DNA from: Candidatus Methylomirabilota bacterium | GTDB lineage: Bacteria; Methylomirabilota; Methylomirabilia; Rokubacteriales; CSP1-6 | DNA: 64,000 nt | Assembly: GCA_035281625.1 (NCBI GenBank) | Contig: DATEDO010000238.1 | Span: 35-64,034, forward strand | Direction of reading: 5' to 3' | Shown: positions 4,092 through 61,885 of the stretch, one piece after another | Layout: the number at the start of each line of letters is the position of its first letter | Position numbering within the stretch: position 1 is the stretch's first letter | Translations under genes and position numbers: made by a program | The notes under the pieces: model-generated | Database searches by the model: none | Told to the model about the DNA's origin: nothing | The model's input: only the letters and a program-made list of their open reading frames with translations

Positions 4092-4150
4092 GGGCGAATG
4101 TTACACTACCGGCCGGCGTCCATCCCCCCGCCGTCGACTGGAGGCTCGCG

Positions 4151-6988: not shown

Positions 6989-7663
6989 ATGACGTTTCCC
7001 CAGTACCTCGACTACATCGGGACACCCGAGAACCTCGCGCGCGAGTCGGGCTGGTGGCTCGGACGGGAGCGCAAGGATCTGAGCGCGCTCGTCCGCGGCT
7101 GGTACGAGCGCCTCCGGCTCACCGAGGCTCAGGCGGCGGCCATGCGCTGGCTCGCCGCGCAGCCCGCCGGCCCCGCCAAGATCCTGGCGATCTCGGAGGA
7201 ATGGTCGTCGGACTGCCGCCGTGACGTCTGCATCGTCGCGCGCCTCGCCGAGGCGGCCGGCCTCGAGCTCCGCATCTTCAATCGCGACGGTCCGCGTCTG
7301 GCGACTGGTCCACGTGCAGATCCCGCCGAGTCGCCCAACGCCGATCTCGTGAACGCCCATCTCCACGAGCGGGACGGGCAGACCTTTCAGTCCATTCCCG
7401 TGGTGGTGGTCTACACCGCGGACTTCGTGGAGCTGCACCGCCACATCGAGCGGCCCGCGCTCTACCGCCGCCACCGCGACCGCATCGTCCCCGCCATGCA
7501 AGCTCCGCGGCCGGGGGAGACGCGCGAGCAGGCGTGGAGCCGCTTCATGGCCGACTGGCGCGCGATCCAGGACGGCCCCTTCTTCCCCATCTGGGCCTCG
7601 GCCACCGCCGACGAGATCCTCTCCGCCCTGCACGAGCGGCTGCTCGGCGCCGCGCCTCGCTAG
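6989..7663 (+). CDS. thioredoxin-fold family protein (tentative); alternative GTG start at 6959
   Basis: About 224 aa, the C-terminal part of ORF 6296..7663. The region ILAISEEWSSDCRRDV resembles the degenerate CxxC region of thioredoxin-family proteins. Assignment from memory only. Confidence 0.45.
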   Translation: MTFPQYLDYIGTPENLARESGWWLGRERKDLSALVRGWYERLRLTEAQAAAMRWLAAQPAGPAKILAISEEWSSDCRRDVCIVARLAEAAGLELRIFNRDGPRLATGPRADPAESPNADLVNAHLHERDGQTFQSIPVVVVYTADFVELHRHIERPALYRRHRDRIVPAMQAPRPGETREQAWSRFMADWRAIQDGPFFPIWASATADEILSALHERLLGAAPR

Positions 7664-8886
7664 AGGGACCGGGGCTTCCGCAAGCGCGGGTAGATTCGCG
7701 AGGTCGCGCCCGCCACCGCCACCAGCGCCACGCCGCTCACCGCCAGGGCCCCGCTCACGCCGATGAGCGAGCCCAGGGCGCCGATCTGGAGCTGCCCGAG
7801 CGGAGCCAGTCCGATGGCCACCACCCACGCCCCGCCGGCCCGGCCGCGCAGGTGCGGCGGCGAGGTGAGCTGCAGCAGGCTCTGGGCGAGGAGGTCGGTG
7901 AGGGCGCCCAGCGCGTTGGCGACGACCAGCACCAGGACCACGCCCGCGAATCCCACCACGTGGGGCGCCGCGCCGAGGCCCACCAGGCTCAGCCCGAAGC
8001 CGACCAGCACGGCGAGGAAGAGCCCGCCGCCCCCGCCCACCGCGGCCATGACCCCGCCGTGCATGGAGGCGAGGAGTCCCACGATGCCGCCGACCGAGCG
8101 CGCCGCGTTCAGCACCCCGAGCCCCTCGGGGCCCGTCTTCAGCACGTCCCGGGCGAGGCTCGGCAGCAGCGTCTGATGCGAGAAGCCCAGCACCTCCGCG
8201 CCGGCGGTGAGGATCATCAGCGCGAGCAGCATGGTATCGGTCCGCAGGAGCGTCGCGAAGCCCACCACGTTGCGCCACACGGATTCGCCGCTGGGCGCCG
8301 CGGAGACGGGCGGGGAGGACACCGGCAGCAGCACGAGCGCGCTCGCCAGATAGGACGCCGCGACGGCCAGGTACGCCGGCCCCGCGCCCAGCTCGGCCAG
8401 GAGCACGCCCCCGCCCAGCGCGCCGACCAGCCAGCCCGCGCGCATGGCGAGCCCCAGCACCGCCAGGCCGCGCACGAGGGCGCCCCCGCCCACCACGTCG
8501 TGGGCATAGCTCTGCCGGGTGGCGTGCTCGAGACCCCGGAAGGCGCCCGAGGCCAGCGTGAACACGAGCAGATGCGGGAGCCGAAGTGTTCCGGTCATGA
8601 TGATCGCGCCGAGACCGCCCATGGTGAGCGTCTGGCCCAGCGCGGTCACGATGAGGAGGCGGTGCCGCGGCCAGCGATCGGCGAGGACGCCCGCGGGCAC
8701 GCCCACGAAGAAGAGCGGCAGCGCCCGCGCCCCCATGGCGAGTCCGACGAGGAACGGCGAGTCCGTCAGCTCCAGCGCCAGCCAGCCCAGCAGCACGACC
8801 TCGCCCATCATGCCAATGGAGGCGAGAAGCATGTTGGCGGAGAGCAAGCGGAAGTCCGGCAGCCGGAGGAGCGAGCGCTCGGTCAC
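7660..8886 (-). CDS. MFS transporter
   Basis: 408 aa with about 12 hydrophobic helices. It is the lower part of the 1033-aa track ORF. Its GTG start overlaps the stop of the upstream lipoprotein gene (GTGA). Confidence 0.8.
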   Translation of the reverse strand: MTERSLLRLPDFRLLSANMLLASIGMMGEVVLLGWLALELTDSPFLVGLAMGARALPLFFVGVPAGVLADRWPRHRLLIVTALGQTLTMGGLGAIIMTGTLRLPHLLVFTLASGAFRGLEHATRQSYAHDVVGGGALVRGLAVLGLAMRAGWLVGALGGGVLLAELGAGPAYLAVAASYLASALVLLPVSSPPVSAAPSGESVWRNVVGFATLLRTDTMLLALMILTAGAEVLGFSHQTLLPSLARDVLKTGPEGLGVLNAARSVGGIVGLLASMHGGVMAAVGGGGGLFLAVLVGFGLSLVGLGAAPHVVGFAGVVLVLVVANALGALTDLLAQSLLQLTSPPHLRGRAGGAWVVAIGLAPLGQLQIGALGSLIGVSGALAVSGVALVAVAGATSRIYPRLRKPRSL

Positions 8887-48413: not shown

Positions 48414-49643
48414 CTATGGCAAGGACGGGGGCGGCGGTCGCGTGGTGGCCTCCCGCCGCCGCGCAAGCAGCACCAGAGCCCCCACCGCGAGCGCGCCCGC
48501 GCTCCCCCCGATCGCGCACGCCGCCCGCACGCCGAGATGCTCGGCGAGCGTGCCCACCAGGAGCGATCCGAACGGCGTGACGCCCGCGAAGGCCATGGCG
48601 TAGAGGCCCATCACGCGCCCGCGCAGCGCCGGGGGCGTGATGAGCTGCAGCGTCGTGTTGCACGAGGTCGTGAAGTAGATCTGGAGCGCCCCGAGCACGG
48701 CCAGGGTCACGACGGCCAGCCCGAAGTGCGCGACCAGGCCGAGCGCGGCCACGCCCGCGCACAAGATCCCGGCCGCGCCGGCCAAGAAGGCCAGGGGCGG
48801 CCGGTCGGTACGCAGGAGGGCGATACCGCCCGCGCCCACCACCGCCCCGCCGCCCAGCGCCGACATGAGATAGCCGAAGCCCTGCGCGCCCTCGCGCAGC
48901 ACGTCGCGCGCGATCAGCGGCACCACCACGTTGAAGTTCAACCCGAGCAGGCTCACCACCACCAGGAGCGAGAGGATGAAGCCCACCGCCGGCGTGCCCG
49001 TCGCGTAGGTGAGCGCCCCCAGCACGCCCTGACGCAGGCCGAGCCGGCCCGCGGGATCGGGGTCGCCCTGGGTGCGCATGGCGAGGAGCGCCACCAGCAC
49101 CGCCACGAACGAGAGCGCGTTCAGGTAGAACGCCACCGCCACGTCGTAGCGGGCGATGAGGAGGCCGGCCACGCTCGGCCCCACGATGCGCGCGCCGTTG
49201 AACACCACGGAGTTGAGCGCCACCGCGTTGGGCAGATCGGCCCGCCCCACCACGTCGGTGATGAAGGCCTGCCGCGCGGGGATGTCGAGGGCGCGGCCGA
49301 GCCCGTAGATCGCGGCGAGGAGGGCGACGTGCCAGTAGCGCACGTGCCCGTGGCGCACCAGCACCGCCAGCACCAGCGCCTGGATCATCATCACGGCCTG
49401 GGTGACGAGGAGGATGTTCCGCTTACCGAGGCGGTCGCTGATGGCGCCGCCCACCGTGGAGAACAGCAGGATCGGCGTGAACTGGAGCGCGTTCACCACG
49501 CCCAGCGACAGCGGCGAGCCCGTCAGCTCGAGCACCAGCCACGACTGCCCCACGCTCTGCATCCACGTGCCGATGAGGGAGACGAGCTGCCCGCCCCAGA
49601 AGAGGCGGAAGTCGCGATGGCGAAACGCGCCGAGCCCGGGCAT
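48414..49643 (-). CDS. MFS transporter (EntS/MFS_3-like)
   Basis: 409 aa. N-terminus FRHRDFRLFWGGQLVSLIGTWMQ is typical of this MFS subfamily, with 12 predicted helices. Confidence 0.85.
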   Translation of the reverse strand: MPGLGAFRHRDFRLFWGGQLVSLIGTWMQSVGQSWLVLELTGSPLSLGVVNALQFTPILLFSTVGGAISDRLGKRNILLVTQAVMMIQALVLAVLVRHGHVRYWHVALLAAIYGLGRALDIPARQAFITDVVGRADLPNAVALNSVVFNGARIVGPSVAGLLIARYDVAVAFYLNALSFVAVLVALLAMRTQGDPDPAGRLGLRQGVLGALTYATGTPAVGFILSLLVVVSLLGLNFNVVVPLIARDVLREGAQGFGYLMSALGGGAVVGAGGIALLRTDRPPLAFLAGAAGILCAGVAALGLVAHFGLAVVTLAVLGALQIYFTTSCNTTLQLITPPALRGRVMGLYAMAFAGVTPFGSLLVGTLAEHLGVRAACAIGGSAGALAVGALVLLARRREATTRPPPPSLP

Positions 49644-49663
49644 ACCTCCTGACTATAAGCGCG

Positions 49664-50590
49664 CTACTTCGGGCGGGCCGCGACCTGGGGCGAGTCGTTC
49701 AGGATGATCGGCAGGCCCGTCTTGTCGCCCAGAATGACCACCTTGGTGTTCGGGCTCTTCGACAGCTCGTGCGCCACCTCGATGGCCTTCCACTTCAGGA
49801 GCTGATCCGAGATCCCCTGCATGACCGTCTTCTGGAAGTCGGCGATGCCCGTCGCCTCCACGCGCTTGCGCTCGGCCTCCTGCCGCTCCTTCTGCAGCAC
49901 GAAGCGCATCCGCTCGGCGTCCTGCTCGGCGGCCAGCTTGGAGTTGATGGCGTCCTCCACCATCTTGGGCAGCACGATCTTCCGCAGCAGCACCTTCTCC
50001 AGCACGATCCCGCGCTGGGTCAGCGTCTTCGAGAGCTCGTCCTGGATCTGCTGGGCGATCACCTCGCGCCCGGAGGTGTAGAGGTCCTTGGCCTCGTGGT
50101 TCACCGTGGCCCCTCTGATGGTGGAGCGGAGCTGCGGCAGGATGAACACCTTGGCGTACTGATCGCCGAGCGTCCGGTACACGCCGGGAGCGGACGTGCC
50201 GTCCAGGTGATAGAGCACCGAGACCTCCAGCCCCACCGTGAGACCTTCCTTGCTGGGGACGTCGGCGTGCTCGAACAGCTCGAGCGTGCGCACCGACATG
50301 AAGCGCACGTCCTTCAGCGGATTGATGAGGTTCAAGCCCTCGGTCAGCGGCGTGTCGACGATGCGCCCGAAGAGGATCTGCACCCCCACGGTGCCGCCCG
50401 GCACGACGCGGAACGAGGCCAGGAGCACGCCCAGGAGGATGACGGCCACGCCCACGAACGGCATGGCGGCGCGCACCTTGCGCACCTCCTCCACCTTGCG
50501 CCCCGCCACGTCCGGGGTCGGGCGCGGGACGGCCAGGCCGATGACGATGAGCGCCACGCCCACGATGATCGAGAGGACGAAGAAGGTCAT
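49664..50590 (-). CDS. SPFH/band-7 (prohibitin/stomatin-like) membrane protein
   Basis: 308 aa. Two N-terminal TM segments, then an SPFH core (VPGGTVGVQILFGRI..., coiled-coil AAEQDAERMRFVLQKERQEAERKRVEA). Confidence 0.85.
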   Translation of the reverse strand: MTFFVLSIIVGVALIVIGLAVPRPTPDVAGRKVEEVRKVRAAMPFVGVAVILLGVLLASFRVVPGGTVGVQILFGRIVDTPLTEGLNLINPLKDVRFMSVRTLELFEHADVPSKEGLTVGLEVSVLYHLDGTSAPGVYRTLGDQYAKVFILPQLRSTIRGATVNHEAKDLYTSGREVIAQQIQDELSKTLTQRGIVLEKVLLRKIVLPKMVEDAINSKLAAEQDAERMRFVLQKERQEAERKRVEATGIADFQKTVMQGISDQLLKWKAIEVAHELSKSPNTKVVILGDKTGLPIILNDSPQVAARPK

Positions 50591-50599
50591 CGGCGCCTC

Positions 50600-50833
50600 C
50601 TAGCGCAGCAGGGTCGGCGCGGGGATCGCCGCCGCGATGACGAGCGCGAAGGCGACGATGACCGCGCCCACGACGATGGCCACGGCCACGTTGCCCTGCC
50701 GGAGCTCCACCCATTCGTCCACCGGCGTGAGCCACGCGAACACCCGCAGCAGGATCGCCAGCGCGATCGCCATCGCGATCGCCCCGACCACCGCCCAGCC
50801 CAGCACGTTCAGATAGTCCGTGAGGATTCGCAT
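50600..50833 (-). CDS. DUF350-like small membrane protein
   Basis: 77 aa with two or three TM helices and the motif QGNVAVAIVVGA, typical of DUF350. Lies 9 nt upstream of the SPFH gene. Confidence 0.6.
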   Translation of the reverse strand: MRILTDYLNVLGWAVVGAIAMAIALAILLRVFAWLTPVDEWVELRQGNVAVAIVVGAVIVAFALVIAAAIPAPTLLR

Positions 50834-50956
50834 CGCCCCTCCCGCCGCGCGTGACGCGCGATCTCGGGACTACGCTAGCGCCATAGGTGCGCGAGACGGG
50901 CAGGAATTCGGCGGGTGCGCGTCTTGCAGCCGACCTCGGGTCAGGAGGTGCCGGAC

Positions 50957-52197: not shown

Positions 52198-52776
52198 TCA
52201 GGGGAGGAGGTCGGCGACGCGGATCGCCGCGTGCGGCGCCGCGAGGGGCGCGACGGTCAGGGACGGGTCCAGCACCTCGCGACGCCCGTAGCGCCAGCCG
52301 AACGGCGCCTCGGGCTCGGGCACCGGCTCGCGATACACCTCGAGCACGCGGTCGATGAGGTTCAGCACCCAGTAGTCGGCCAGGCCGGCGCGCGCGTAGA
52401 GGCTGCCCTTGTGGGCACGGTCAGTCTCCAGGCTAGCCTCGGCTATCTCGACCGTCAGCACCGGACGCGACGGGTGCTCATGGAGGTAGTCTTGGATCGT
52501 TCCCGGGACAACAACGACATCGGGCTCGGGCTCGGACTCGTCGTCCAACGCGAGGGGTCCCTGTGGGCGGACATCCCACCCCGGCCCAAAGGCCGTCGCG
52601 ATCGCGCGGGTGACCATGACGGTCGCGACGCAGTGAGGCGGGGTCTTCCGCTCCGCCACCATCAGGCGCCCACCGACGAGCTCGATGGGGTCGTCGGGGT
52701 GGAAGAAGCCCGCGTCGATCAGGCGGTCGTATCCGGCTCGGGTGAGTCGCCGCGTGTGGGCGATGTACTCCGGCAT
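52198..52776 (-). CDS. Uma2 family (DUF820) PD-(D/E)xK-like endonuclease
   Basis: 192 aa from the internal ATG. Has YDRLIDAGFF...IELVGGRLMV, PDVVVVP, VEIAE.S...D...K...YARAGL.DYWVLNL, the Uma2 pattern. The longer track ORF (to 52890) would read into the repeat unit. Confidence 0.7.
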   Translation of the reverse strand: MPEYIAHTRRLTRAGYDRLIDAGFFHPDDPIELVGGRLMVAERKTPPHCVATVMVTRAIATAFGPGWDVRPQGPLALDDESEPEPDVVVVPGTIQDYLHEHPSRPVLTVEIAEASLETDRAHKGSLYARAGLADYWVLNLIDRVLEVYREPVPEPEAPFGWRYGRREVLDPSLTVAPLAAPHAAIRVADLLP

Positions 52777-53061
52777 GCCGTCATCGTAGAGGCCGGCCAC
52801 GTAAGCGTCAACGAGCGGCCGTTGATGCGCGTCGCCGTAGATGTATCCGAAGGGATACGTCTTGACGGCCGCATGGGCTGACGATTCCACACGCTCGGAG
52901 TGCCGAGATACGTCGCCCCTACGGGGCGAGGACGACGCCTCGTCTTGGGATCAGACGCGCACCCACCGAAAATCATCTCGTCCGCCACGATCGTGTCCCA
53001 CGCGCCCTCTCAGAGAGCGCGAAACTCGCGGTGTAGGGTGGCGCAACAGGGAGGATGCGCC

Positions 53062-53449
53062 ATGTCGATCGCCGCCCGCGCCGCCGTCGTCGAGCCGCCC
53101 AGCCCGATGTGGCTTCCCACCCACCCGCGCGTCGCCGAGCTGGAGCGCCTGGGCGACGAGATCGCCGAGCTCGCCGCCCATCTCGACGCGGCCACCGCCC
53201 GGCTCCTGGACTTGATCCGCGAGTTCGACGCCCGCGGCGGCTGGAACACCGGCTTCCGCTCCTGCGCCGAGTGGCTGGCGTGGCGGGTGGGGATGAACCT
53301 GGGCGCGGCCCGCGAGCGCGTGCGGGTGGTGCGCGCCCTCCCCCATCACCGCGCGCACCGGGCTCCCCCGCTGGCTGGGCAAGCGGCTCGACCTCGGCTG
53401 GGCGCTCGACGTGCTGCGTCCCGAGTCGAATCCGCGACCGCTGGCTTGA
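53062..53449 (+). pseudogene. DUF222/HNH endonuclease pseudogene (about 1 kb internal deletion plus frameshift)
   Basis: The first ~92 codons match the N-terminus of 58895..60289 (PTHPRVAELERLGDEIA.LAAHLDAATARLLDLIREFDAR.GWNTGFRSCAEWLAWRVGMNLGAARERVRV). The sequence then jumps to the last 34 codons (ITARTGLP.WLGKRLDLGWALD) in a different frame. The HNH motif is lost. Confidence 0.75.
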
Positions 53450-53465
53450 CGCTTGCCCCCTCACG

Positions 53466-53493
53466 GTTCCGCGGAAACGTTTCCGCGGAAACG
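53466..53493. repeat. tandem pair of the GTTTCCGCGGAAAC palindrome (one imperfect, one perfect 16-mer CGTTTCCGCGGAAACG)
   Basis: Read directly: GTTCCGCGGAAACGTTTCCGCGGAAACG, 17 nt after the pseudogene stop. Confidence 0.8.
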
Positions 53494-53848
53494 CGGGGGC
53501 GGTTCAGCCGAGTGGAGCCGATATCGCAGCGTCCTGCTGGCATGCGAGAATCCCCGGCCGATGGGCATGAACGCCCGATGTGCCGTCCGCACGGCCATCC
53601 TGATCTTGGAGGAGCGCTTCAAGGGGCACAGCGCGGGCGGCCGCGACGGCCCTTCTCGTTCCTATCGGTAGGTAGGCCGGCAGGAAGCTCCTACACGCTG
53701 GGAAAATCGATACCCACCATCGATCGCGGCTGACATCTGGCGTGACGCGTGGTTACGCCGGCCGGGCCTTCTGGCACATCTGATGCTCCTCCTGGGCCAT
53801 CCCCGCGCCGTACGGCGCTAGGGAGATTCGACCGTCAGGAGGTAACGC

Positions 53849-54334
53849 ATGACAGCGTATCGGATCTTCGCGCTTGCCCTCGCCCTCGTGGTCATGGTCG
53901 CGGGTCCCGCGTGGGCCAAGGGCGGTGGTGGCGGCGGCGGAGGCGCAGGCGGTGGTGGCGGCGCGGGTGGCGGCGCCGGTGATGGTGGCGGAGTTGCCGG
54001 CGGCAATGGCGGCGGGAACGGAAACGGTGGCGGCAATGGCAACGGCGGCGGCAACGGGAACGGCGTCGCCGGCGGGCCGGGGAACGGCAACGGTCCGTCC
54101 GTGAGCAGTGGCCACGGCCCGGCCGGGGAAGTCGGCCACTCGGGCCACTCCGGTCCCGTGGGCAACGGCCGCGGCACGGCGCTCACCGCGCCCGGCAGCG
54201 TGCATCGCTCCGATCAGGCCACCGCGAATCTGTCCGCCTCGCGGCCGGGCAACGCGAATCCAGCGAGCGGGGTCGTGCCCGGCTTCGGGCACATCGGCAC
54301 GGTGCCGACGACGCCGGGGCATCAGGCGCCGTAG
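53849..54334 (+). CDS. secreted Gly/Asn-rich low-complexity protein
   Basis: 161 aa. AGGAGG lies 6 nt upstream. Signal peptide MTAYRIFALALALVVMVAGPAWA, then poly-Gly and three GGGNGNG units. The C-terminal motif GTVPTTPGH is shared with the next gene. Confidence 0.6.
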   Translation: MTAYRIFALALALVVMVAGPAWAKGGGGGGGGAGGGGGAGGGAGDGGGVAGGNGGGNGNGGGNGNGGGNGNGVAGGPGNGNGPSVSSGHGPAGEVGHSGHSGPVGNGRGTALTAPGSVHRSDQATANLSASRPGNANPASGVVPGFGHIGTVPTTPGHQAP

Positions 54335-54360
54335 CCGTCCAGGCGTCGTAGCGAACAGGC

Positions 54361-54405
54361 TCGAGCGTGGCCGCGAGGGCTGTCTCGCCTCGCGGTCACG
54401 CTCGG
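54361..54405 (+). terminator. strong GC-rich hairpin (16-18 bp stem, one G-U pair), a candidate intrinsic terminator or attenuator without a U-tract
   Basis: GAGCGTGGCCGCGAGG (54363-54378) pairs with CCTCGCGGTCACGCTC (54388-54403). Lies 27 nt after the stop of 53849..54334. Confidence 0.4.
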
Positions 54406-54445
54406 GCGAAGGCCCCGGGCGATTCCACTCTCAAGGAGGCCCCGC

Positions 54446-54748
54446 ATGACAGCACGACGGATGTTCGCGCTCGCCCTCGCCCTCGCGGTGTGCTCGGCGG
54501 GCACGGCGGCCGCTCAGAATCCGAACCCCGGTTCCGGCAAGGGCACCTCGACCACGGCGCCCGGCAGCGAGAAGCGCCCCGACGCGACGAACGAGCGTCT
54601 CACCACGCCGCCGGAGGAAAAGAAGAGCGGCGTGACTCCGGGCGGCGGCAAGACCGGCACCGTGCCGACGACGCCCGGCCACGACACGACCGGTAAGAAG
54701 AAGACCGACGAGATGAAGGATCCCAAGACGACCGGTCAGAAGAAGTAG
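54446..54748 (+). CDS. secreted Pro/Thr/Lys-rich low-complexity protein, paralogous in its signal peptide and C-motif to 53849..54334
   Basis: 100 aa. AAGGAGG upstream. Signal peptide MTARRMFALALALAVCSAGTAAA, the GTVPTTPGH motif, and a Lys-rich tail. Confidence 0.55.
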   Translation: MTARRMFALALALAVCSAGTAAAQNPNPGSGKGTSTTAPGSEKRPDATNERLTTPPEEKKSGVTPGGGKTGTVPTTPGHDTTGKKKTDEMKDPKTTGQKK

Positions 54749-54780
54749 GCCAAGCCGAGCCCCTCGCGGCGCGGCGTGGG

Positions 54781-55434
54781 CTACCGCGGCAGCCCGCGCA
54801 CGGCCGCGAGGATCTCCTCGTCCGACGGGAACGAGCCAACCTCCCCGGGGCCGTTGGCGCACTCGATGCTCGCCCACCGGACGATGCCGTCGCGGTCGAT
54901 GAGGTACCGGGCCTTGAGCTGGGGGAACTGGCGCTCCATGTCCGCCTGGTCGGCCGGCGAGTTCACGTGCCCATCCAGCTCGCCGACCTTTGCCGCGGCC
55001 TCCATCACGGGGAGGGGCTTCGGCAGCTCGCCCGTCGGGTTGATGAGGACGGACTCCATTTCCTTGAAGAACTCGGGCCCCGCCACGGGCTTCGGCACGC
55101 GAAACGCGCGATGCGTGGTGAGAGCCGGATCGGCGCCCAGGCGCAGCCTGGACGGGCGAAACTTGAAGTAGAGCCGGGCGTTCTCCGGCGCCGTGGCGAC
55201 CACGCACACCGTCTCCACGCCCTCGGCCTTGAGCTTGGCTTCGGTCGTGCCGAGACGGGCGATCTGCCGCCGGCAGAACGGGCACCAGAGCCCCACCATG
55301 AGCGCGAGGAACACGGGGTTCTTGCCCCGGTAGTCGGCGAGGGTGACGTCCTTCGAGCCGTCCACGGCGGGCAGCGAGAAGTCTGGCGCGGCCTCACCGG
55401 GCGCGACGGGGGGGCGAGTGTCGACGGTTGTCAT
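54781..55434 (-). CDS. peroxiredoxin-like / AhpC-TSA thioredoxin-fold protein with a CxxC (WCPFC) centre and a long internal insertion
   Basis: 217 aa. APDFSLPAVDG...VFLALMVGLWCPFCRR and C-terminal YLIDRDGIVRW are redoxin-like. GGGAGGA upstream. Lies 34 nt downstream of the cyclase gene on the same strand. Confidence 0.75.
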   Translation of the reverse strand: MTTVDTRPPVAPGEAAPDFSLPAVDGSKDVTLADYRGKNPVFLALMVGLWCPFCRRQIARLGTTEAKLKAEGVETVCVVATAPENARLYFKFRPSRLRLGADPALTTHRAFRVPKPVAGPEFFKEMESVLINPTGELPKPLPVMEAAAKVGELDGHVNSPADQADMERQFPQLKARYLIDRDGIVRWASIECANGPGEVGSFPSDEEILAAVRGLPR

Positions 55435-55468
55435 GCGAAGGTCCTCCCTGGGGTGGTCTGAGACATGG

Positions 55469-58400
55469 TCAGCAGAGAAATGGCAGCACCATGAGCGCGT
55501 CGGGTTCCACGCCCGCCCGCTCGCACACGGCCTGGGCCTTGGCGAGGTAGCTCTCCGCCTTCGCCACGTCGCCGCTGTCGAGGTAGAGCGTGGCGAGCCC
55601 GTCGTAGCAGGGGAAGAGGAGCTGCGGCTCCCCCGCCTGCTCGGCCAGGCCCAGCGCCTCCTCGTAGCACGCGAAGGCGCGCGCGTGATCGCCGTGACAT
55701 TGCTCGATCTGGCCGAGCACGATGAGCGGCACCGCGAGATGGTCGATCAGGCCGAGGCGCCGGTCGAGCGCCACCGCGGCCTGGGCCGCCTCCACGCCCT
55801 CGGCCTCGCAGCGGTCGGTGAGGGCGCAGTAGGCCACGGCGAGGTTCGCGTAGAGGCGCGACTGGAAGCCGAGGTCGCCGACCCGCTTGGCCATGGCGAG
55901 GCCGCGCCGGCACGTCTCGATGCTGCGCGGCGGATCGAGCGAGGCGTAGAGCACGCTCAAGTTCGTGTAGCCCCGACAGGCGGCCTGCAGGAGATCGCGC
56001 GCCTCGGCGAGCGCCACGCTGCGCTCGATCTGCTCGACGGCCTCGGCGGGGCGGCCGGTACGCGCGAGGGCGACGCCCAGCGTGTTGTAGGCGTGCACCC
56101 GCACCGCGGCGGCCTCGCGGGCGCGCTCGGCCGCAGCGGCCGCGCCGGGCTCAGCCGTCGCGGCCTCGCCGGTGGCCTCGGCCAGCGCCTTCTCCGCCCA
56201 CTCGATGGCGGCGGCATTGTCCCCGCCGCGGAAGGCCAGCCGGCCCATCTCCTGGAAGAGGTGCGCCCGCTCGATGGCGTCGCCATCGGTGGCGAGGCGC
56301 TGGAGCCCGGCGGCGAAGCACGCGCCCGCGCGCTCGCGATCCCCCGCGTCCCAGTGCAGCCCCCCGATCTTCCGGTGGAGACGCGCGGTGGCCGCGCCGT
56401 CGCTCCTCGCCTCCGCTGCGGCGCGCACCGCCTCGTAGTGCGCGAGCGCCTCGGCCCGCCGGCCGGTGAGGCCCAGCAGGTCGCCCAGCCGCTCGCGCGC
56501 GGCGAGGGTATCCGCCTCGCCGCCGGGAGAGTCGGCGAGGATGCGCCGCGCGCGGTCGTAGTGGCGGATGGCGTCCTCGTTCGCGTACACGCCGCGAGCC
56601 CAGTCGCCCGCGGCGAGGAGATAGCGGGCGCCGCGGAGCCTGTCGGCGCTGAGGCTCCAGTGATGGCCGAGGGCTTCCAGATCGCTCAGGCGCTCCGGGC
56701 GCGGGCCCGCCGCGCGCTCCAGCGCCCGCGCCGCCCGCTCGTGCATCTCCGTCCGCCGCGCGAGCAGGAGGTTCTGGTACACGACATCGTGCACGAGGGC
56801 GTGGGTGAAGCGGAAGCGCGCGCCCTCGCGCCCGCGCCCCGCCGGCTGGAGGAGATCGGCCGCGACCAGGCGCTCCAGCGCCTCCCGCGGCACGGCGGCC
56901 ACCGCGCGCAGCAGCGGCTCGTCGAAGTCCACCCCGAGCACGGCGGCCTCCTGCAGGAGGCGCCGCTCCTCGGCGCCGAGCTTGTCGATGCGGGAGAGGA
57001 GGAGCCCCTGGAGGGTGGGCGGCACGTCCACCTCCTGGCACGAGGCGGGGCTCGCCCACCGATCGCCCTCGCGCACGAGGACGCCGCGCGCGACCAGCAT
57101 GCGGACGATCTCTTCGACGAAGAGGGGATTGCCGCCCGCGCGGCTCACCACGATGTCGCCGATCTGCCCGAGCGGGTCGCCGATCACCTCGCCGAAGAGG
57201 CCGTCCACCAGGGCACGCGAGTCGGCCGGAGAGAGCGGCCCCAGGCGGATGACCGTCTGCTCGGCGCGGGCCACCAGCGGGGGCGTGGCATCGGGCCGAT
57301 GGGTCAGCAGGAACATCAGGGGCCGGTCGGCAAGCTGATCGGCCGCGTTGCGGAGGAGATCCACGGAGGCCGTGTCCGCCCAGTGGAGATCCTCGATCAG
57401 CAGCAGCAGCGGCGCCTGCGAGAGGCGCCGCTCGAGCAGGGTGCGCGCGGCGAGGGCGATCTGGCGCTGCAGCTGCTCGGGCTCCACGTCGCGGGGCTTC
57501 GCCTCCTCCACCCCCAGCACGTAGCTCAGCACCGGCGCGACCGCTTCCGCCTCCTCGTCGCGCGCCCCCATCGCCCGCAGCCCGGTGACGAGCTTCTCGC
57601 GCGCCACGTCCAGCGAGTCGCCCGGCTCCACGCGGTAGGCGTCGCGGAAGAGGGCGCCGAACACGCCGTAGGTCGGCTCGCCGAGCGACGAGCAGACGGC
57701 GCGCCGAATCACCACGCCCTCCAGGCGGCCGTCCGCGCCGAGGCGCGCGAAGAGCTCCTTGATCAGGCGCGACTTGCCCGTGCCGGTCTCGCCCACCAGG
57801 CTCACCATCTGCGCGCGGCCCTCGCGCATTCGCCCGAACGCGCCCTCGAGCTGGGCGAGCTCGTCCGCGCGCCCCACCAGCGGCGCGGCCAGGCCGAGGG
57901 TGCCCAGGCCGCGGGCGGAGCCGGGGTCGGCGAGCGCGCCCACCAGGCGATGCACGACGATCGGCGCGGCCTTGCCCTTCGCGGCGACCGGGTTCGCCGC
58001 CTCGAACGCGAAATGGTGCTGCGTGAGCGCGTAGGTCGCGTCGGAGACGAGGATGGTGTCCGCCGGCGCCGCGGAGAGGAGGCGCGCGGTCGTGTTCACC
58101 GTGTCGCCCGTCACGGCGTAGGCGCCCGCCGCGCCCGCGCCGCCGCCCAGGCTGCCCGCGACCACGGGGCCCGTATGCACCCCCACGTGCAGCGACACCG
58201 GCTGGCCCAGCCGCCGCTCCCACTGCCGGCTCAGCGCCGCGCCCCGCGCCAGCATGTCCAGCGCCGCCGCGAGCGCGCGCTGCGGGTCGTCCTCGTGCGC
58301 CACGGGCGCGCCGAACACCGCCATCACCGCGTCGCCCACGAACTTCTCCACGAAGCCGTCCCGGGCCTGGATGGCCTGCGCCAGCGTGCCGAAGAGCGCG

Positions 58401-58606
58401 TTCTGGAACTCGCGCACCTCCTCGGGATCGAGCCGCTCGGAGAGCGCGGTGAAGCCGGACAGATCGGCGAAGAGCACGCTGACCTGGCGGCGGTCGGCCT
58501 CGGGGGCGGGCGGTGGCGGGGCGGGGGCGGCCGCCAGCTTCTGCCCGCAGCGGGGGCAGAAGGCGAAGTCGGGCGGGGCCTCGAAGCGGCAGCCGGGGCA
58601 CGTCAT
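55469..58606 (-). CDS. multidomain signalling protein: zinc ribbon, class III adenylyl/guanylyl cyclase, STAND/AAA_16 P-loop NTPase, TPR array
   Basis: 1045 aa. Has CPGC..CPRC, cyclase metal-binding motifs VLFADLSGFT and KFVGDAVMAVFG, Walker A GETGTGKS, a Walker B-like LLLLIEDLHWAD, and a repetitive helical TPR-like C-terminal ~400 aa. Confidence 0.9.
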   Translation of the reverse strand: MTCPGCRFEAPPDFAFCPRCGQKLAAAPAPPPPAPEADRRQVSVLFADLSGFTALSERLDPEEVREFQNALFGTLAQAIQARDGFVEKFVGDAVMAVFGAPVAHEDDPQRALAAALDMLARGAALSRQWERRLGQPVSLHVGVHTGPVVAGSLGGGAGAAGAYAVTGDTVNTTARLLSAAPADTILVSDATYALTQHHFAFEAANPVAAKGKAAPIVVHRLVGALADPGSARGLGTLGLAAPLVGRADELAQLEGAFGRMREGRAQMVSLVGETGTGKSRLIKELFARLGADGRLEGVVIRRAVCSSLGEPTYGVFGALFRDAYRVEPGDSLDVAREKLVTGLRAMGARDEEAEAVAPVLSYVLGVEEAKPRDVEPEQLQRQIALAARTLLERRLSQAPLLLLIEDLHWADTASVDLLRNAADQLADRPLMFLLTHRPDATPPLVARAEQTVIRLGPLSPADSRALVDGLFGEVIGDPLGQIGDIVVSRAGGNPLFVEEIVRMLVARGVLVREGDRWASPASCQEVDVPPTLQGLLLSRIDKLGAEERRLLQEAAVLGVDFDEPLLRAVAAVPREALERLVAADLLQPAGRGREGARFRFTHALVHDVVYQNLLLARRTEMHERAARALERAAGPRPERLSDLEALGHHWSLSADRLRGARYLLAAGDWARGVYANEDAIRHYDRARRILADSPGGEADTLAARERLGDLLGLTGRRAEALAHYEAVRAAAEARSDGAATARLHRKIGGLHWDAGDRERAGACFAAGLQRLATDGDAIERAHLFQEMGRLAFRGGDNAAAIEWAEKALAEATGEAATAEPGAAAAAERAREAAAVRVHAYNTLGVALARTGRPAEAVEQIERSVALAEARDLLQAACRGYTNLSVLYASLDPPRSIETCRRGLAMAKRVGDLGFQSRLYANLAVAYCALTDRCEAEGVEAAQAAVALDRRLGLIDHLAVPLIVLGQIEQCHGDHARAFACYEEALGLAEQAGEPQLLFPCYDGLATLYLDSGDVAKAESYLAKAQAVCERAGVEPDALMVLPFLC

Positions 58607-58894
58607 GCTGAACCGCTACGATAGCACCCCGATCCTCCCGCCCGGCGACGTATCGCCGCGACGAACCGGCCCCATGTATCGGGCGAGATACGTCTTGACG
58701 GCCTCCCGAGCGGGCAGCCGCGCTGGGCCGACCACGTCGCGAAAGCGCCCCGCCGGCGCAGCCCGCCGCCTCACGGGCGCACCATCCCGCACGCGACCAC
58801 CGAAAATGTCATCGTGCCCTCCGATCGCGCTCCGTGGGCGCTCACAGACCGCACGAACACCGCGGTGTAGAGTCGGCGCAGCAGGAGGATGCCC

Positions 58895-60289
58895 ATGTCA
58901 CTCGCCGCCATGCTGCCCGCTTCCGTGTCCGTGGTCGAACCCCAGACGCGTGACGTCATCGTCATGCCCACGCACCCCCGGGTCGCCGAGCTGGAGCGGC
59001 TGGGCGACGAGATCGCCGCGCTCGCGGCCCACCTCGACGCCGCCACCGCCCGGCTCCTGGACCTCATCCGCGAGTTCGACGCGCGCGCGGGCTGGAACAC
59101 CGGCTTCCGCTCCTGCGCGGAGTGGCTGGCGTGGCGCGTGGGCATGAACCTGGGCGCCGCTCGTGAGCGCGTGCGGGTGGCGCGCGCCCTGGCGGGGCTG
59201 CCGCGCCTGGCCGCGGCGCTGGCGCGCGGCGAGCTCTCCTATGCCAAGGTGCGCGCGCTCACCCGGGTGGCCACCCCGGAGACGGAGGAGCGTCTGCTCG
59301 CCCTCGGCCGCGCGGGCACCGCCTCCCACGTGGAGCGCATCGTGCGCGGCTGGCGCCGGGTGGACCGGCAGGCGGAGGCGAAGGAGGCCAGGCTCCGGCA
59401 CCAGAACCGCGCCCTGCACGTCTTCCACGACGACGACGGCACGGTGGTGCTCCGCGGCCGCCTCGAGCCCGAGGTGGGCGCCTTGCTGGTCAAGGCCCTG
59501 GACGCCGCGCGCGAGGCCCTGTACCAGGGCGGCTTCACCCAATCGTTCACGGGGCCGCGCGATCCCCTCGGCGACCCGCCCACGCCGGCGCAGCAGCGCG
59601 CCGACGCTCTGGCGCTCCTCGCCGCCACCGCCCTCCAGCACGGGGTCGAGCCCACCGCCGCCGCCGACCGCTATCAAGTGGTGGTGCACGTGGACGCCCC
59701 GGTGCTGGCCGACCCCGACCGGCCCGGCCAGTCGGTGCTGGAGGACGGCACTCACGTTTCCGCGGAAACGTCGGCGCGCCTGGCCTGTGACGCCAGCCGC
59801 ACGGTGATGCACCACGACGATGCCGGGCGCATCGTGGAGGTCGCGGCCCGCAATCGCACCATTCCGCCCGCCCTACGGCGGGCGTTACAGGCCCGGGACC
59901 AGGGCTGCCGCTTCCCCGGGTGCGGCAGCCGCTACACCGAGGGCCATCACATCCGGCACTGGGCCCGCGGAGGGCCCACCACGCTGTCCAATCTGGCGCT
60001 GCTCTGCCGCCGCCACCACCGGGCCGTGCACGAAGAGGGCTTCCAGATCGCCCGCGGGTCGGACGACACCCTGCACTTTCATCGCCCGGACGGCGCGCGA
60101 GTGCCCGAGGCCCCCGTGCCGCCCGCGCTCGCCGCGGATCCCGTGGCGGCGCTGCGCACGCGGCACGCCGAGGCGGGCCTTTCCATCACCGCGCGCACCG
60201 GGCTCCCCCACTGGCTGGGCAAGCGGCTCGACCTCGGCTGGGCGCTCGACCTTCTGCGGTCGCAAGCGGAGCCGCGACCGCCGGCCTGA
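58895..60289 (+). CDS. DUF222 domain HNH endonuclease ('13E12 repeat'-type)
   Basis: 464 aa from the ATG conserved with copy A, with AGGAGGA upstream. N-terminal DUF222-like region and C-terminal HNH motif GHHIRHWARGGPTTLSNLALLCRRHHRAVH. Confidence 0.85.
   Translation: MSLAAMLPASVSVVEPQTRDVIVMPTHPRVAELERLGDEIAALAAHLDAATARLLDLIREFDARAGWNTGFRSCAEWLAWRVGMNLGAARERVRVARALAGLPRLAAALARGELSYAKVRALTRVATPETEERLLALGRAGTASHVERIVRGWRRVDRQAEAKEARLRHQNRALHVFHDDDGTVVLRGRLEPEVGALLVKALDAAREALYQGGFTQSFTGPRDPLGDPPTPAQQRADALALLAATALQHGVEPTAAADRYQVVVHVDAPVLADPDRPGQSVLEDGTHVSAETSARLACDASRTVMHHDDAGRIVEVAARNRTIPPALRRALQARDQGCRFPGCGSRYTEGHHIRHWARGGPTTLSNLALLCRRHHRAVHEEGFQIARGSDDTLHFHRPDGARVPEAPVPPALAADPVAALRTRHAEAGLSITARTGLPHWLGKRLDLGWALDLLRSQAEPRPPA
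59754..59771. repeat. 18-bp perfect palindrome ACGTTTCCGCGGAAACGT inside the HNH endonuclease CDS
   Basis: Read directly. Encodes ..HVSAETS.. in the gene frame. Confidence 0.85.
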
Positions 60290-60307
60290 CCCGCCTTGGC
60301 GCGAGCG

Positions 60308-60321
60308 GTTTCCGCGGAAAC
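60308..60321. repeat. 14-bp perfect palindrome GTTTCCGCGGAAAC, 19 nt after the HNH gene stop
   Basis: Read directly. Occupies the position equivalent to the copy at 53466-53493. Confidence 0.85.
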
Positions 60322-60338
60322 GTGCCCGGGCCGGGCGC

Positions 60339-60621
60339 TAGGCTGCACCCCTAGCGTGAGACCTACACCCACGCCGGCGAGGAAGACGCCCGCGATCGCG
60401 CTTGGTGGAGCTCCAGCGCAAGGTGGGGCAGCAGGCGCTGGAGCTCGATTTCTTCAAAACGGCCTTGCGGCACGTCGAGGCACCACCCCGGCCGAGCGCG
60501 CCAGCCGATTTTGAGGCAACGCTGGCGCCGGTCGGCAGGACGACGCTAAACGAGCTTGTCGTGAACCGTGCTCGGCAAGATTTTCCTTATTTTCGCTGTC
60601 TCACTTTAGGGGTGCACCTCA
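60339..60621 (+). mobile_element. internally deleted IS3-family element relic (~283 bp, MITE-like) with terminal inverted repeats and an OrfA C-terminal fragment
   Basis: Left end TAGGCTGCACCCCTAGCGTGAGAC versus the reverse complement of the right end TGAGGTGCACCCCTAAAGTGAGAC (about 20/23 matches). The internal frame VELQRKVGQQALELDFFKTALRHV resembles the leucine-zipper end of IS3-family OrfA. There is no intact transposase. Confidence 0.45.
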
Positions 60622-60633
60622 AGGGCAAGGAGC

Positions 60634-60655
60634 CGACGTTTCCGCGGAAACGTCG
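60634..60655. repeat. 22-bp perfect palindrome CGACGTTTCCGCGGAAACGTCG
   Basis: Read directly. This is the longest member of the palindrome family. It lies 12 nt beyond the IS relic and 41 nt from the hydrolase stop. Confidence 0.85.
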
Positions 60656-60696: not shown

Positions 60697-61885
60697 TCAG
60701 AGCGCCGCATACACCAGATCGATCAGCTCCCGCACGTGCCGGTGCTGCCAGCCCGGGCGGCCCTGGTTCATGGCGTAGCCGATGGCCACGCGCGCGTCGG
60801 GATCGGCGAAGCCCAGCGACCCGCCCGCGCCGAAGTGCCCGAAGGCGCGCGGCCCTGGGCCCAGCTTCCGCTCCGGCATGGTGAGCTGAAAGCCGAGCCC
60901 GTAGCGCGTGGGCCGCTCCAGCACCAGATCCGGCCCGTTCACCTGCTCGGCGATGGCGCGCGCCACCGTCTCCGGCGCCAGCACGTGCACGCCGTCGAGC
61001 GTGCCGTCCGTCGCCAGCGCCGAGTAGAGGCGCGCGACCGCCCGCGCCGTGCCGTGCCCGTTGGTCGACGGCACCTCCGCCGCCCGCCACGCGCGAGTGT
61101 TCACGATCTCCATGCCGGAGAGCGGCGGCGGGTTGCGATAGGCGTGCATCCGCATGAGCGCCAGCCCCTCGAGCGCGCCGCCATCCCCGTGCAGCCGCGC
61201 CTCGAAGGCATCCCGCTCGGGGCTGGGCAGCGGCGGGAGGTAGTCGGCGCAGCGCGCGTCATGCTCGGGCCCGAGCCCCCAGTGCCAGTCGATGCCCGCG
61301 GGCCCGCCCAGCTCGGTGCGGAAGTAGACGCCGATGGACCGGCCGGTGACGCGGCGGATCACCTCGCCGATCAGGAAGCCCTGCGTGTTGACGTGATAGC
61401 CGTGGCCCGTGCCTGGCTCCCACCAGGGCGCCTGCGCGGCGAGGGCCTCCGTCATCAGCGTCCAGTCGCCCCAGGCCTCGGGCGGCAGCACCCGGGCGAC
61501 GGCCGGGAGCCCCACCTGGTGGGTCAGGAGGTAGCGCACGGGGACGCGCGCCTTCCCCCGACTGCGCGAACTCGGGCCAGTAGCGCGCGACGGGGGCGTC
61601 CAGGTCGACCCGCCCGGCCTCGACCAGGCGGAGGAGGCACACCGCGCTGATCGCCTTGCCCACGGAGAAGAGGTTGACGAGGGTGTCGCTCTGCCAGGGC
61701 CGGGTGCGGGCGGCATCGGCGTGGCCGGCCCACAGATCCACCACCGGCTCCTTGTTGACGTAGACGGCGAGGGCGGCGCCCACCTCGGTGCCCGCCGCCG
61801 TGATGTCGGCGAGCGCCTGGCGCAGGGGCTCGAACTTCGGCGTGCAGACGCCGGCGACTACCGCTTCGGGGTGCCCGTCGATCAC
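60697..61885 (-). pseudogene. serine hydrolase (class C beta-lactamase/esterase family), split by a +1 frameshift in a C5/G5 run at 61555-61559
   Basis: The N-terminal ORF (61885 down) carries SxxK (FSVGK) and YWPEFAQSG. The C-terminal ORF continues GKARVPVRYLLTHQVGLP... in another frame. Removing one G restores QSGKARVPVRYLLTH. Confidence 0.75.

Follow-up and report, generated by a model that had tools for sequence, protein, structure and literature searches.

Two old direct copies of a DUF222-HNH repeat unit bracket a variable block of resident genes in a Rokubacteria contig

In a 64-kb stretch (the window) of a Rokubacteria (Methylomirabilota) contig from a metagenome-type assembly, two units carrying a DUF222-HNH nuclease gene lie in the same orientation on either side of a block of about 5.2 kb that contains genes for two secreted paralogs (sec1 and sec2), an AhpC/TSA (peroxiredoxin-like; Prx) gene, and a gene for a cyclase-AAA16-TPR protein. 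The whole arrangement lies between a Uma2-family endonuclease gene (Uma2) on the left and a beta-lactamase-family gene (bla) on the right. The original prediction, made from the sequence alone, had described this bracketed arrangement, and that observation is confirmed; its interpretation, in which the bracketed genes are cargo gained or lost by recombination between the repeats, or the HNH unit inserted twice, is partly supported. We consider it probable that this is a plasticity zone in which two old direct copies of a selfish, multicopy DUF222-HNH repeat surround resident genes and in which relatives differ by recombination and deletion. The block is accessory and is flanked by real repeats of a mobile-looking unit, and it is not demonstrably the cargo of those repeats; it is itself ordinary and does not constitute a new type of mobile island.

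Self-BLASTN of the window and repeat finding agree that the two units share a leader, both ends of the coding sequence (CDS), and a trailing palindrome. The 5' core of the CDS is repeated at 53116-53339 and 58967-59190 (91% identical by repeat finding). In the self-BLASTN, the CDS core together with the proximal leader aligns 52963-53339 with 58797-59190 (80% over 396 nucleotides [nt], E=1.6e-95), a 3' repeat aligns 53343-53480 with 60183-60323 (84%, E=8e-36), and a 30-nt leader-start block aligns 52841-52870 with 58674-58703 (87%, E=9e-4 within the window). This common leader block opens with 16 nt that form the palindromic hairpin GTATC-N6-GATAC. The two leaders are equal in length, about 220 nt from hairpin to ATG (53062 and 58895, the latter replacing the start at 58889 given previously), and are only 59% identical overall. 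Five conserved blocks common to both recur in six further loci of the subfamily to which the window copies belong (eight copies: the two in the window and those at L001, L081, L082, L083, L164, and L168 in relatives), and the leaders are therefore homologous beyond the CDS, a chance alignment being excluded. The parts of the two units are as follows.

52843-52867, forward strand: left end of the short unit, hairpin GTATCCGAAGGGATAC followed by a GTC-TTGACG box.
52868-53061, forward strand: leader of the short copy, with blocks CCACCGAAAAT, CGATCG, CGCGGTGTAG.GT, and GGAGGA in common with the seven other leaders, to each of which it is 59-63% identical.
53062-53449, forward strand: DUF222-HNH pseudogene, internally deleted and frameshifted (5' remnant 53062-53339, junction at about 53340-53343, 3' remnant running to the TGA at 53447-53449).
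53465-53492, no strand: two tandem 14-nt palindromes, the first with 1 mismatch (motif scan).
58676-58700, forward strand: left end of the full unit, hairpin GTATCGGGCGAGATAC followed by a GTC-TTGACG box (subfamily comparison).
58701-58894, forward strand: leader of the full copy; the orthologous copies in L081 and L164 have leaders 81-84% identical to it.
58895-60289, forward strand: intact DUF222-HNH gene of 464 amino acids (aa), with Pfam matches to DUF222 (PF02720, E=5.6e-26) and HNH (PF01844, E=1.2e-9), its product identical to recorded protein P0001.
59756-59769, no strand: palindrome within the HNH CDS, over codons V-S-A-E-T (motif scan; rare codons across 67 VSAET motifs).
60308-60321, no strand: trailing palindrome of the full copy (motif scan).

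The short copy lacks about 990 nt (59191-60182 of the full copy), and its deletion junction shows an imperfect microhomology of 4 to 5 nt. In tblastn its two remnants correspond to aa 3-99 and aa 431-462 of the full protein and are read in different frames; with the 3' part thus out of frame relative to the 5' part, the short copy is a pseudogene. The identities of its leader to every subfamily member, the full copy included, fall within the same narrow range, whereas the leader of the full copy closely matches those of its orthologs; because the short leader is equally distant from all the others, the two window copies are old paralogs, neither a recent duplication nor a recently converted pair. 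Recent duplication and concerted evolution were both considered and found no support in the leader identity matrix. The full HNH gene diverges from its orthologs in step with the adjacent bla gene (87-90% versus 90-97% in L164 and L081, and 84% versus 84% in L001), which indicates that this copy was inherited vertically.

Loci of relatives were recovered by exact-protein look-ups and locus scans; a tblastx comparison was set aside as too noisy in GC-rich DNA. As judged by orthologous loci, relatives differ in the presence or absence of the block, with the following gene orders.

Window: Band7-DUF350-FAD monooxygenase-Uma2, dead HNH copy, sec1-sec2-Prx-cyclase, HNH, relic of an insertion sequence (IS), bla, and further on TopoVIA.
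L081 (HNH 90% identical): Prx-cyclase-HNH-palindrome-bla.
L164-167 (HNH 87%): cyclase-HNH-(another Prx)-bla-TopoVIA.
L001 (HNH 84%): FAD monooxygenase-Uma2-HNH-bla-TopoVIA and nothing else, hence one HNH and no block.
L172: TopoVIA-...-bla-Uma2, with about 38 nt in place of the window's roughly 7.8 kb; no HNH, no block.
L171: Uma2 overlapping a 3'-truncated bla (a plain deletion); no HNH between them, no block.
L083: HNH on the other side of Uma2, with sec1-sec2 homologs 4 kb away.
L168: sec1-like gene, a 64-nt Uma2 scrap, and an HNH gene near Band7-DUF350.

Because relatives differ in this series, the Uma2-bla interval is hypervariable in the clade, the 52.8-60.65 kb segment of the window being one state among several. 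That the segment is accessory, as had been proposed, is borne out by L172, in which the hairpin on the Uma2 side runs straight into the palindrome and spacer found after the full HNH gene in the window. The window segment starts exactly where the left unit starts and stops at the palindrome beyond the right unit, and the block is thus a real presence/absence polymorphism whose edges coincide with unit ends. Other parts of the neighborhood also vary: the Band7(SPFH)-DUF350 pair (window 49636-50956) is missing at L001:2392-2519, and the FAD-monooxygenase gene is missing from L171 and L168, both being further indels.

As judged by TopoVIA and bla, L081 and L164 are closest to the window, and L001, L171, and L172 are approximately equidistant from it (TopoVIA 96-97%, bla 82-84%). 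Simple state counting would favor a gain of the block in the window's clade, and the secreted-gene homologs in L083 and L168, together with the L171 deletion, would favor its loss in L001, L171, and L172; the deletion that truncates bla in L171 shows that deletions do occur at this locus. One form of gain would involve a translocatable unit, in which a circle carrying one HNH gene and the four block genes entered a resident HNH copy of an L001-like ancestor by a single crossover, one of the two resulting copies then decaying. A single gain in the closer clade would be parsimonious, since the empty loci L172 and L171 and the one-HNH locus L001 are about equidistant and all members of that clade have cyclase-HNH-bla; both copies also have the hairpin on their left and the palindrome on their right, which fits this explanation. 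We nevertheless regard it as rather unlikely, given that the leaders are as diverged as any two members of the subfamily, such that the donor would have been an old paralog, that the secreted-gene homologs adjoin Uma2 or Band7 in L083 and L168 without any such structure, that the compositional signal is absent, and that no circular form was observed. Composite transposons and IS26-type translocatable units resemble the window in having direct repeats of a mobile-looking gene around passengers and a one-copy state in a relative. They differ from it in that the unit described here has DUF222 and HNH only, with no transposase, inverted ends, or target duplication, and in that the passengers are resident chromosomal genes.

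The gene content between and around the repeats matches the earlier description, with Pfam assigning DUF222 plus HNH, Uma2, AhpC/TSA, and Guanylate_cyc plus AAA_16 plus TPR, in addition to two signal-peptide paralogs. The genes of the block are as follows.

53849-54334, forward strand: sec1, secreted low-complexity protein 1, an open reading frame (ORF) with an N-terminal signal-like peptide, paralogous to sec2 (E=3e-11), with homologs in L083 and L168.
54446-54748, forward strand: sec2, secreted low-complexity protein 2, an ORF paralogous to sec1.
54781-55434, reverse strand: AhpC/TSA gene, the partner of the cyclase gene (Pfam AhpC-TSA, E=3e-16), which adjoins the cyclase gene in L081 and L084-L089.
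55469-58606, reverse strand: adenylate/guanylate cyclase-AAA_16(STAND)-TPR gene (Pfam), with orthologs 90-91% identical in L081 and L164.

These four genes are ordinary residents of the neighborhood, and the idea that they are cargo was not supported by comparison. The cyclase-AhpC/TSA pair is conserved in unrelated contigs down to 50% identity without HNH, the two-gene module recurring in L084-L089 (cyclase to 50% and AhpC/TSA to 32% identity), and the GC content of the segment (0.68-0.79) is unremarkable and like that of its flanks. Homologs of the secreted genes occur in the same neighborhood in L083 and L168, near Uma2 or Band7, without flanking HNH pairs. In PADLOC, the cyclase gave only generic PycC-like matches, and the best NCBIfam match of its product is the TOMM kinase/cyclase fusion, well below the cut-off. 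In agreement with the original prediction, no integrase, tRNA, or att site was found in the segment: there is no tRNA and no Rfam family within the window, and Pfam found no integrase domain in the ORFs scanned (HNH, Uma2, the two secreted genes, Prx, cyclase, IS relic, and bla), smaller ORFs lying outside the scan. With its GC content also like that of the flanks, the segment does not resemble a classical genomic island.

The reading that we prefer builds on the limits of the unit, its multicopy nature, its presence and absence in relatives, and the lack of transposon and island hallmarks, all of which were observed directly. It envisages a plasticity zone of the Rokubacteria chromosome between the Uma2 and bla genes, populated by a selfish repeat of about 1.6 kb made up of an operator-like hairpin, a TTGAC box, a leader of about 220 nt, and the DUF222-HNH nuclease gene. 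The left copy was killed by the 990-nt out-of-frame deletion at a short imperfect microhomology. The states seen in relatives would have arisen when HNH units and flanking palindromes recombined with one another by homologous (RecA-type) exchange or when the DNA between them was deleted, as for the 13E12 repeats of Mycobacterium tuberculosis. L001 would then be either a one-copy deletion product or a pre-insertion state, and the unit would spread by repair of nuclease-provoked breaks, copying flanking scraps along with it, and not by transposition.

Several observations weigh against this reading. Considered as a substrate for recombination, the block has limits that are unit ends, and L001, with one HNH and no block, is the product expected of recombination between the copies, as had been predicted for repeat-mediated gain or loss; however, the L001 leader is 62.7% identical to that of the short copy and 63.1% to that of the full copy, and because it is no closer to the former than to the latter, L001 is not demonstrably recombinant. 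The longest exact matches between the two window copies are only 40, 29, and 27 nt, and the present-day copies are therefore poor or marginal substrates for homologous recombination. Gain of the block in the window's clade and its loss in the relatives each have observations in their favor, and both the nuclease activity and the mobility of the unit are predicted only. Finally, the junction between the dead copy and sec1 is known from the window contig alone, and since repeats in a metagenome-type contig can be misjoined, the contig might in principle be chimeric at the repeated HNH sequence and the arrangement present in no cell. We consider such an artifact highly improbable. The copies are only 80-91% identical over a few hundred nucleotides, and no exact match between them exceeds 40 nt, which would not suffice to confuse an assembler. 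The dead copy is also distinguished by a diverged leader of its own, and both junctions recur in independent assemblies: Uma2-hairpin-HNH 5' end on the left in L001, and cyclase-HNH-bla on the right in L081 and L164-167.

The HNH unit, including its leader, is a dispersed multicopy repeat with sharp ends, as had been suspected. More than 7,980 proteins in a collection clustered at 90% match the full HNH protein at E<=1e-10, and at E<=1e-3 the matches amount to 31,388 clusters (50% identity). The best matches are annotated as Methylomirabilota or Rokubacteria, and the 113 sequences aligned from the best 120 share 68-89% identity with the window protein. At least 487 HNH loci emerged when one genome per species was scanned, and related metagenome-assembled genomes (MAGs) carry 3 to 4 or more loci each, several with 3 to 4 being among the best 80 matches. 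Between paralogs of the same MAG, similarity extends over about 1.56-1.59 kb, beginning some 250-270 nt upstream of the conserved coding region and stopping sharply 0-40 nt past the stop codon; neither terminal inverted repeats nor a target duplication was found at the ends of the units in six paralog pairs. The left end is marked by CTTGAC(A/G), located 210-300 nt upstream in 85 of 90 units, and this box is directly preceded by (A/T)TTTCCG in most units and by the perfect hairpin GTATC-N6-GATAC in the window's subfamily, all eight copies of which carry the hairpin-GTCTTGACGG module and the same leader blocks in at least five different contexts. The trailing palindrome, by comparison, had been taken as part of the unit and proved not to be so in general, since only some 5 of roughly 90 units have it after the CDS; the trailing palindrome/TTTCC motif was rejected as the usual right end (7 of 91 units against a 9% background), as was insertion at the center of the palindrome, the right flanks lacking GGAAAC. 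No structured leader RNA was found in Rfam at E up to 1, and a conserved leader fold was rejected after RNAalifold on the eight leaders gave a positive (unfavorable) covariation term and many broken pairs.

Further loci illustrate how the units are distributed and how they decay. In L003, L011, and L032, which represent two MAGs, HNH units are flanked by TopoVIA fragments from around nt 890-965 of the window TopoVIA CDS, and these bordering fragments suggest that units are copied together with flanking DNA. In L003 (5337-8327), the unit lies between a fragment spanning nt 497-936 upstream and one spanning nt 793-1110 about 630 nt downstream, with a 144-nt segment on both sides; in L011 there are short scraps on both sides (5775-5820 and 7465-7495), and in L032 the fragments lie at 3892-4126 and 7259-7289. 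Units 65-72% identical to that of the window occur in bins labeled Acidobacteria, Dormibacterota, Acidimicrobiia, Actinobacteria, Gemmatimonadales, Limnocylindria, and Verrucomicrobiia (L009, L029, L061, L006, L014, L034, L040, L041, L075, and L076), reflecting either horizontal spread or misbinning of the repeat. Dead copies are common: a degraded, frame-broken HNH copy (56-63% identity) lies at L171:17773-18995, about 8 kb from the Uma2-bla junction, and extra C-terminal HNH fragments are present in L019 and L024.

Free-standing HNH homing endonuclease genes (phage I-HmuI and mobE type) share several features with this family, namely, a stand-alone HNH gene with its own promoter, filled and empty alleles at one site in relatives, and flanking scraps that travel with some copies, as in co-conversion. 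They differ from it in that the window family has many ectopic copies per genome instead of one allele-specific site, and in that the putative recognition palindrome survives insertion and also lies inside the gene; cleavage is predicted only. The likeness underlies a further explanation, in which the HNH unit targets a junction of the GTATC-N6-GATAC hairpin and the palindrome GTTTCCGCGGAAAC, sites of this kind before Uma2 and before the cyclase gene were invaded independently, and the relatives without the block are deletions. An intact hairpin-palindrome junction does occur in L172, exactly where the window and L001 carry the unit and matching the flanks of the unit in both; a degenerate junction precedes the L083 Uma2 gene, and the hairpin stands to the left and the palindrome to the right of both window copies and of those in L081 and L168. 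The status of the two copies as old paralogs, and a model of the nuclease's N-terminal domain (N-domain) that resembles the ParB/Noc domains that bind similar palindromes, point the same way. Set against this, the upstream region of an HNH-less cyclase ortholog (L085, 72% identical), where a preexisting hairpin or palindrome was sought, has neither, and most units elsewhere lack the trailing palindrome. The hairpin is part of the unit in the unrelated contexts of L082 and L168 and thus need not be a target, and intact palindromes persist beside and inside the HNH gene, which is not how a classical homing site behaves. Two independent insertions of this kind seem improbable to us, and we retain the preferred reading of old direct copies around resident genes.

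The hairpin is best read as an operator common to divergent promoters, because the same hairpin and TTGACG box also precede Uma2 genes. In L172, the hairpin directly abuts the TTGACG -35 box before both Uma2 copies; in the window, the Uma2 promoter (TTGACG-17-TACGAT) lies about 31 nt from the hairpin and is the only sigma70 promoter that was found, a consensus scan detecting none in the HNH leaders. The two features concerned are as follows.

52198-52776, reverse strand: Uma2-family endonuclease gene, the left neighbor outside the repeats (Pfam Uma2, E=7e-19; the 192-aa form from the ATG at 52776 fits homologs of 192 aa).
52783-52811, reverse strand: sigma70-like Uma2 promoter TTGACG-17-TACGAT (promoter scan, 9 of 12 matches, 0.0 expected), with the same layout before both L172 Uma2 genes.

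Uma2 nucleases form a very large multicopy family (7,050 matches at E<=1e-20, the top ones about 65-70% identical), and their genes repeatedly adjoin HNH units (window 52198-52811; L172:5603-6233 and 8075-8705; L032; L042; L083), which suggests that the two nuclease families are coregulated via a common hairpin-TTGACG module. In a PADLOC defense-system scan, the HNH protein had no match and Uma2 fell into candidate family PDC-S03. To the left of the hairpin there are degenerate tandem repeats of the -35 box plus the left arm of the hairpin, such as CGTCAACGTGTCG-CGTCGACGTATCG in L001 (4340-4377), also found at window 52790-52842 and 58640-58675 and at L083:5750-5780; they look like slippage or repair scars at a palindrome.

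Copies of the 14-nt palindrome GTTTCCGCGGAAAC number five in the window, where 0.01 would be expected, and all lie within 53465-60651: a tandem pair behind the short copy, one behind the full copy, another 330 nt farther on, and one in the full CDS. In about 1.8 Mb of fetched loci, allowing 1 mismatch, 90 palindromes lie inside HNH CDSs and only 11 outside; the latter comprise 4 in the window and 7 in fetched loci. For 10 of these 11, an HNH gene is no more than about 650 nt away, and the remaining one (L172) precedes a Uma2 gene. The in-CDS palindrome encodes V-S-A-E-T at one or two conserved positions. Codon choice at 67 such motifs in 90 distinct HNH CDSs was compared with overall codon usage in the same genes, with the following result.

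Val, GTT: 63 of 67 at the motif; overall usage 8.9%.
Glu, GAA: 59 of 67; overall usage 18.8%.
Ser, TCC: 60 of 67; overall usage 34%.
Ala, GCG: 59 of 67; overall usage 48.5%.
Thr, ACG: 65 of 67.

Because rare codons maintain the palindrome of the VSAET motif, it is under nucleotide-level constraint as a DNA (or RNA) element. Variants that keep the symmetry occur (GTTTCTGCAGAAAC five times and GTTTCGGCCGAAAC once). In most units, (A/T)TTTCCG plus the C of the CTTGAC box gives TTTCCGC, one half-site of the palindrome; the promoter half-site variant TTTCTGC is paired with the internal variant GTTTCTGCAGAAAC in L030 and L036, though not consistently. Only two homologs were found in a plasmid collection. 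One, on the Rhodococcus erythropolis plasmid NZ_CP050126.1 (L173), is a DUF222-HNH gene of 34% identity without the in-CDS palindrome; a perfect 16-nt palindrome, CGTCCCCGCGGGGACG, lies 109 nt upstream of its start (L173:611-626), a single case, and its half-site differs from that of Rokubacteria at two positions.

The full-length AlphaFold model of the HNH protein is poor except for residues ~25-165, and the N-domain modeled alone reaches a pLDDT of 92.6 and a pTM of 0.81. In Foldseek, the best 15 PDB matches of the N-domain are all DNA-binding domains of ParB, Noc, or Spo0J (probability 0.85-1.0, E only 0.07-0.84, TM 0.42-0.59), and the full-length model gives the same ParB/Noc picture. No link to the ParB family was found at the sequence or profile level, either in Pfam at E up to 10 or in PDB sequence and profile searches; the links of DUF222 to solved structures that did appear, weak IscB/Cas8-HNH matches and a spurious match to ribosomal protein S5, were discarded. 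The sites of ParB and Noc are parS (TGTTTCAC-GTGAAACA) and NBS (TATTTCCC-GGGAAATA), both of which have TTTC/GAAA arms like those of the palindrome (PMC7383237). The palindrome GTTTCCG-CGGAAAC has the GTTTC/GAAAC arms in common with parS (GTTTCAC-GTGAAAC) and is alike at 5 of 7 half-site positions to NBS (ATTTCCC-GGGAAAT) (PMC7383237). The HNH protein differs from ParB and Noc in that its N-domain has no sequence-level similarity to theirs, lacks the N-terminal CTPase domain of ParB, and is fused to a nuclease.

We offer it as an inference, and not as a finding, that the DUF222 N-domain may bind the in-gene palindrome. More broadly, and tentatively, DUF222 could be a ParB/Noc-like DNA-binding domain fused to an HNH nuclease with GTTTCCGCGGAAAC as its site, and REP13E12-type repeats could be self-recognizing and self-regulating, cutting or pairing at these sites and thereby creating plasticity zones. 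The site would be kept inside the unit's own CDS by rare codons, a half-site (TTTCCGC) would abut the TTGAC promoter box, and further sites would lie in some flanks. Alternatively, the palindrome might be an attachment-type site for other elements or an mRNA hairpin.

The right flank contains three further features, as follows.

60344-60616, no strand: IS-like relic of 273 nt with 19-nt inverted ends (TGCACCCCTAGCGTGAGAC and its reverse complement) and a remnant of a transposase-OrfA-like peptide (inverted repeat 60308-60362/60598-60651).
60638-60651, no strand: second trailing palindrome, which together with the next spacer constitutes the ancestral bla-side flank (collinear with L081 and L172).
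60697-61885, reverse strand: bla, Beta-lactamase-family gene, frameshifted, the right neighbor outside the repeats (two overlapping ORFs, both matching PF00144; intact at 404 aa in L164).

The frameshifted hydrolase described earlier on this side is thus the Beta-lactamase-family gene, and what had been called an IS3 relic is corrected to a 273-nt element with inverted ends. The relic sits between two copies of the GTTTCCGCGGAAAC palindrome and, as judged by locus comparison, is missing from L081, L001, and L172; its peptide matches ORFs annotated as transposase/HTH at E of about 1e-5. At L021:5739-5775, a relic-related sequence (GGGGTGCACCCC), itself palindromic, follows a GTTTCCGCGGAAAC palindrome just upstream of another HNH unit, and it may be a second REP-like palindrome or an IS with this region as its target. 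The bla gene is split into two overlapping frames in the window and differently split in L172; the frameshifted window gene is either a pseudogene or an assembly error.

DUF222/HNH repeats are the REP13E12 repeats of M. tuberculosis (PMC10589994), which have been described as gene-conversion hotspots without a defined function (PMC13061034) and as breakpoints of recurrent large inversions (PMC13157036), most members being under LexA and/or RecA_NDp control (PMC3381160). The window family has the same DUF222 plus HNH Pfam architecture, with matches above gathering scores, and is likewise a dispersed multicopy repeat that extends past the CDS (by about 250 nt on the 5' side and no more than about 40 nt on the 3' side), full and truncated copies occurring together, as do the two in the window. 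REP13E12 copies lie at structural-variant breakpoints (PMC13157036, PMC13061034), and the variable block of the window is similarly bounded by copies. In both there is an operator-like palindrome at the promoter, represented here by the GTATC-N6-GATAC hairpin beside the TTGAC box. The families differ in phylum, the one described here being from Methylomirabilota and 34% identical to the single Rhodococcus plasmid homolog compared, and a role in phage attachment is known only for REP13E12, which serves as an attachment-type site for phiRv1. To our knowledge, few repeats of M. tuberculosis are as poorly understood as the 13E12 family, which is damage inducible, with no known mechanism, and we know of no description of an in-CDS parS-like palindrome or a hairpin-TTGAC left end for REP13E12.

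Because 13E12 units have already been documented at rearrangements in M. tuberculosis, the variable block between two DUF222-HNH units is a fresh instance, in a different phylum, of a known form of genome plasticity. What is new is a further member of the REP13E12-type family in another phylum, with a palindrome in the gene and a ParB-like domain in its product. Soil Rokubacteria contain very large numbers of DUF222-HNH elements, which here mark a hypervariable zone of the chromosome, and the combination of an embedded palindrome and a ParB-like domain provides a concrete, testable hypothesis for 13E12-type repeats. If correct, ParB-like palindrome binding would explain the recombination hotspots at DUF222-HNH genes and would supply a function for DUF222, a large domain of unknown function with more than 31,000 clusters at 50% identity.

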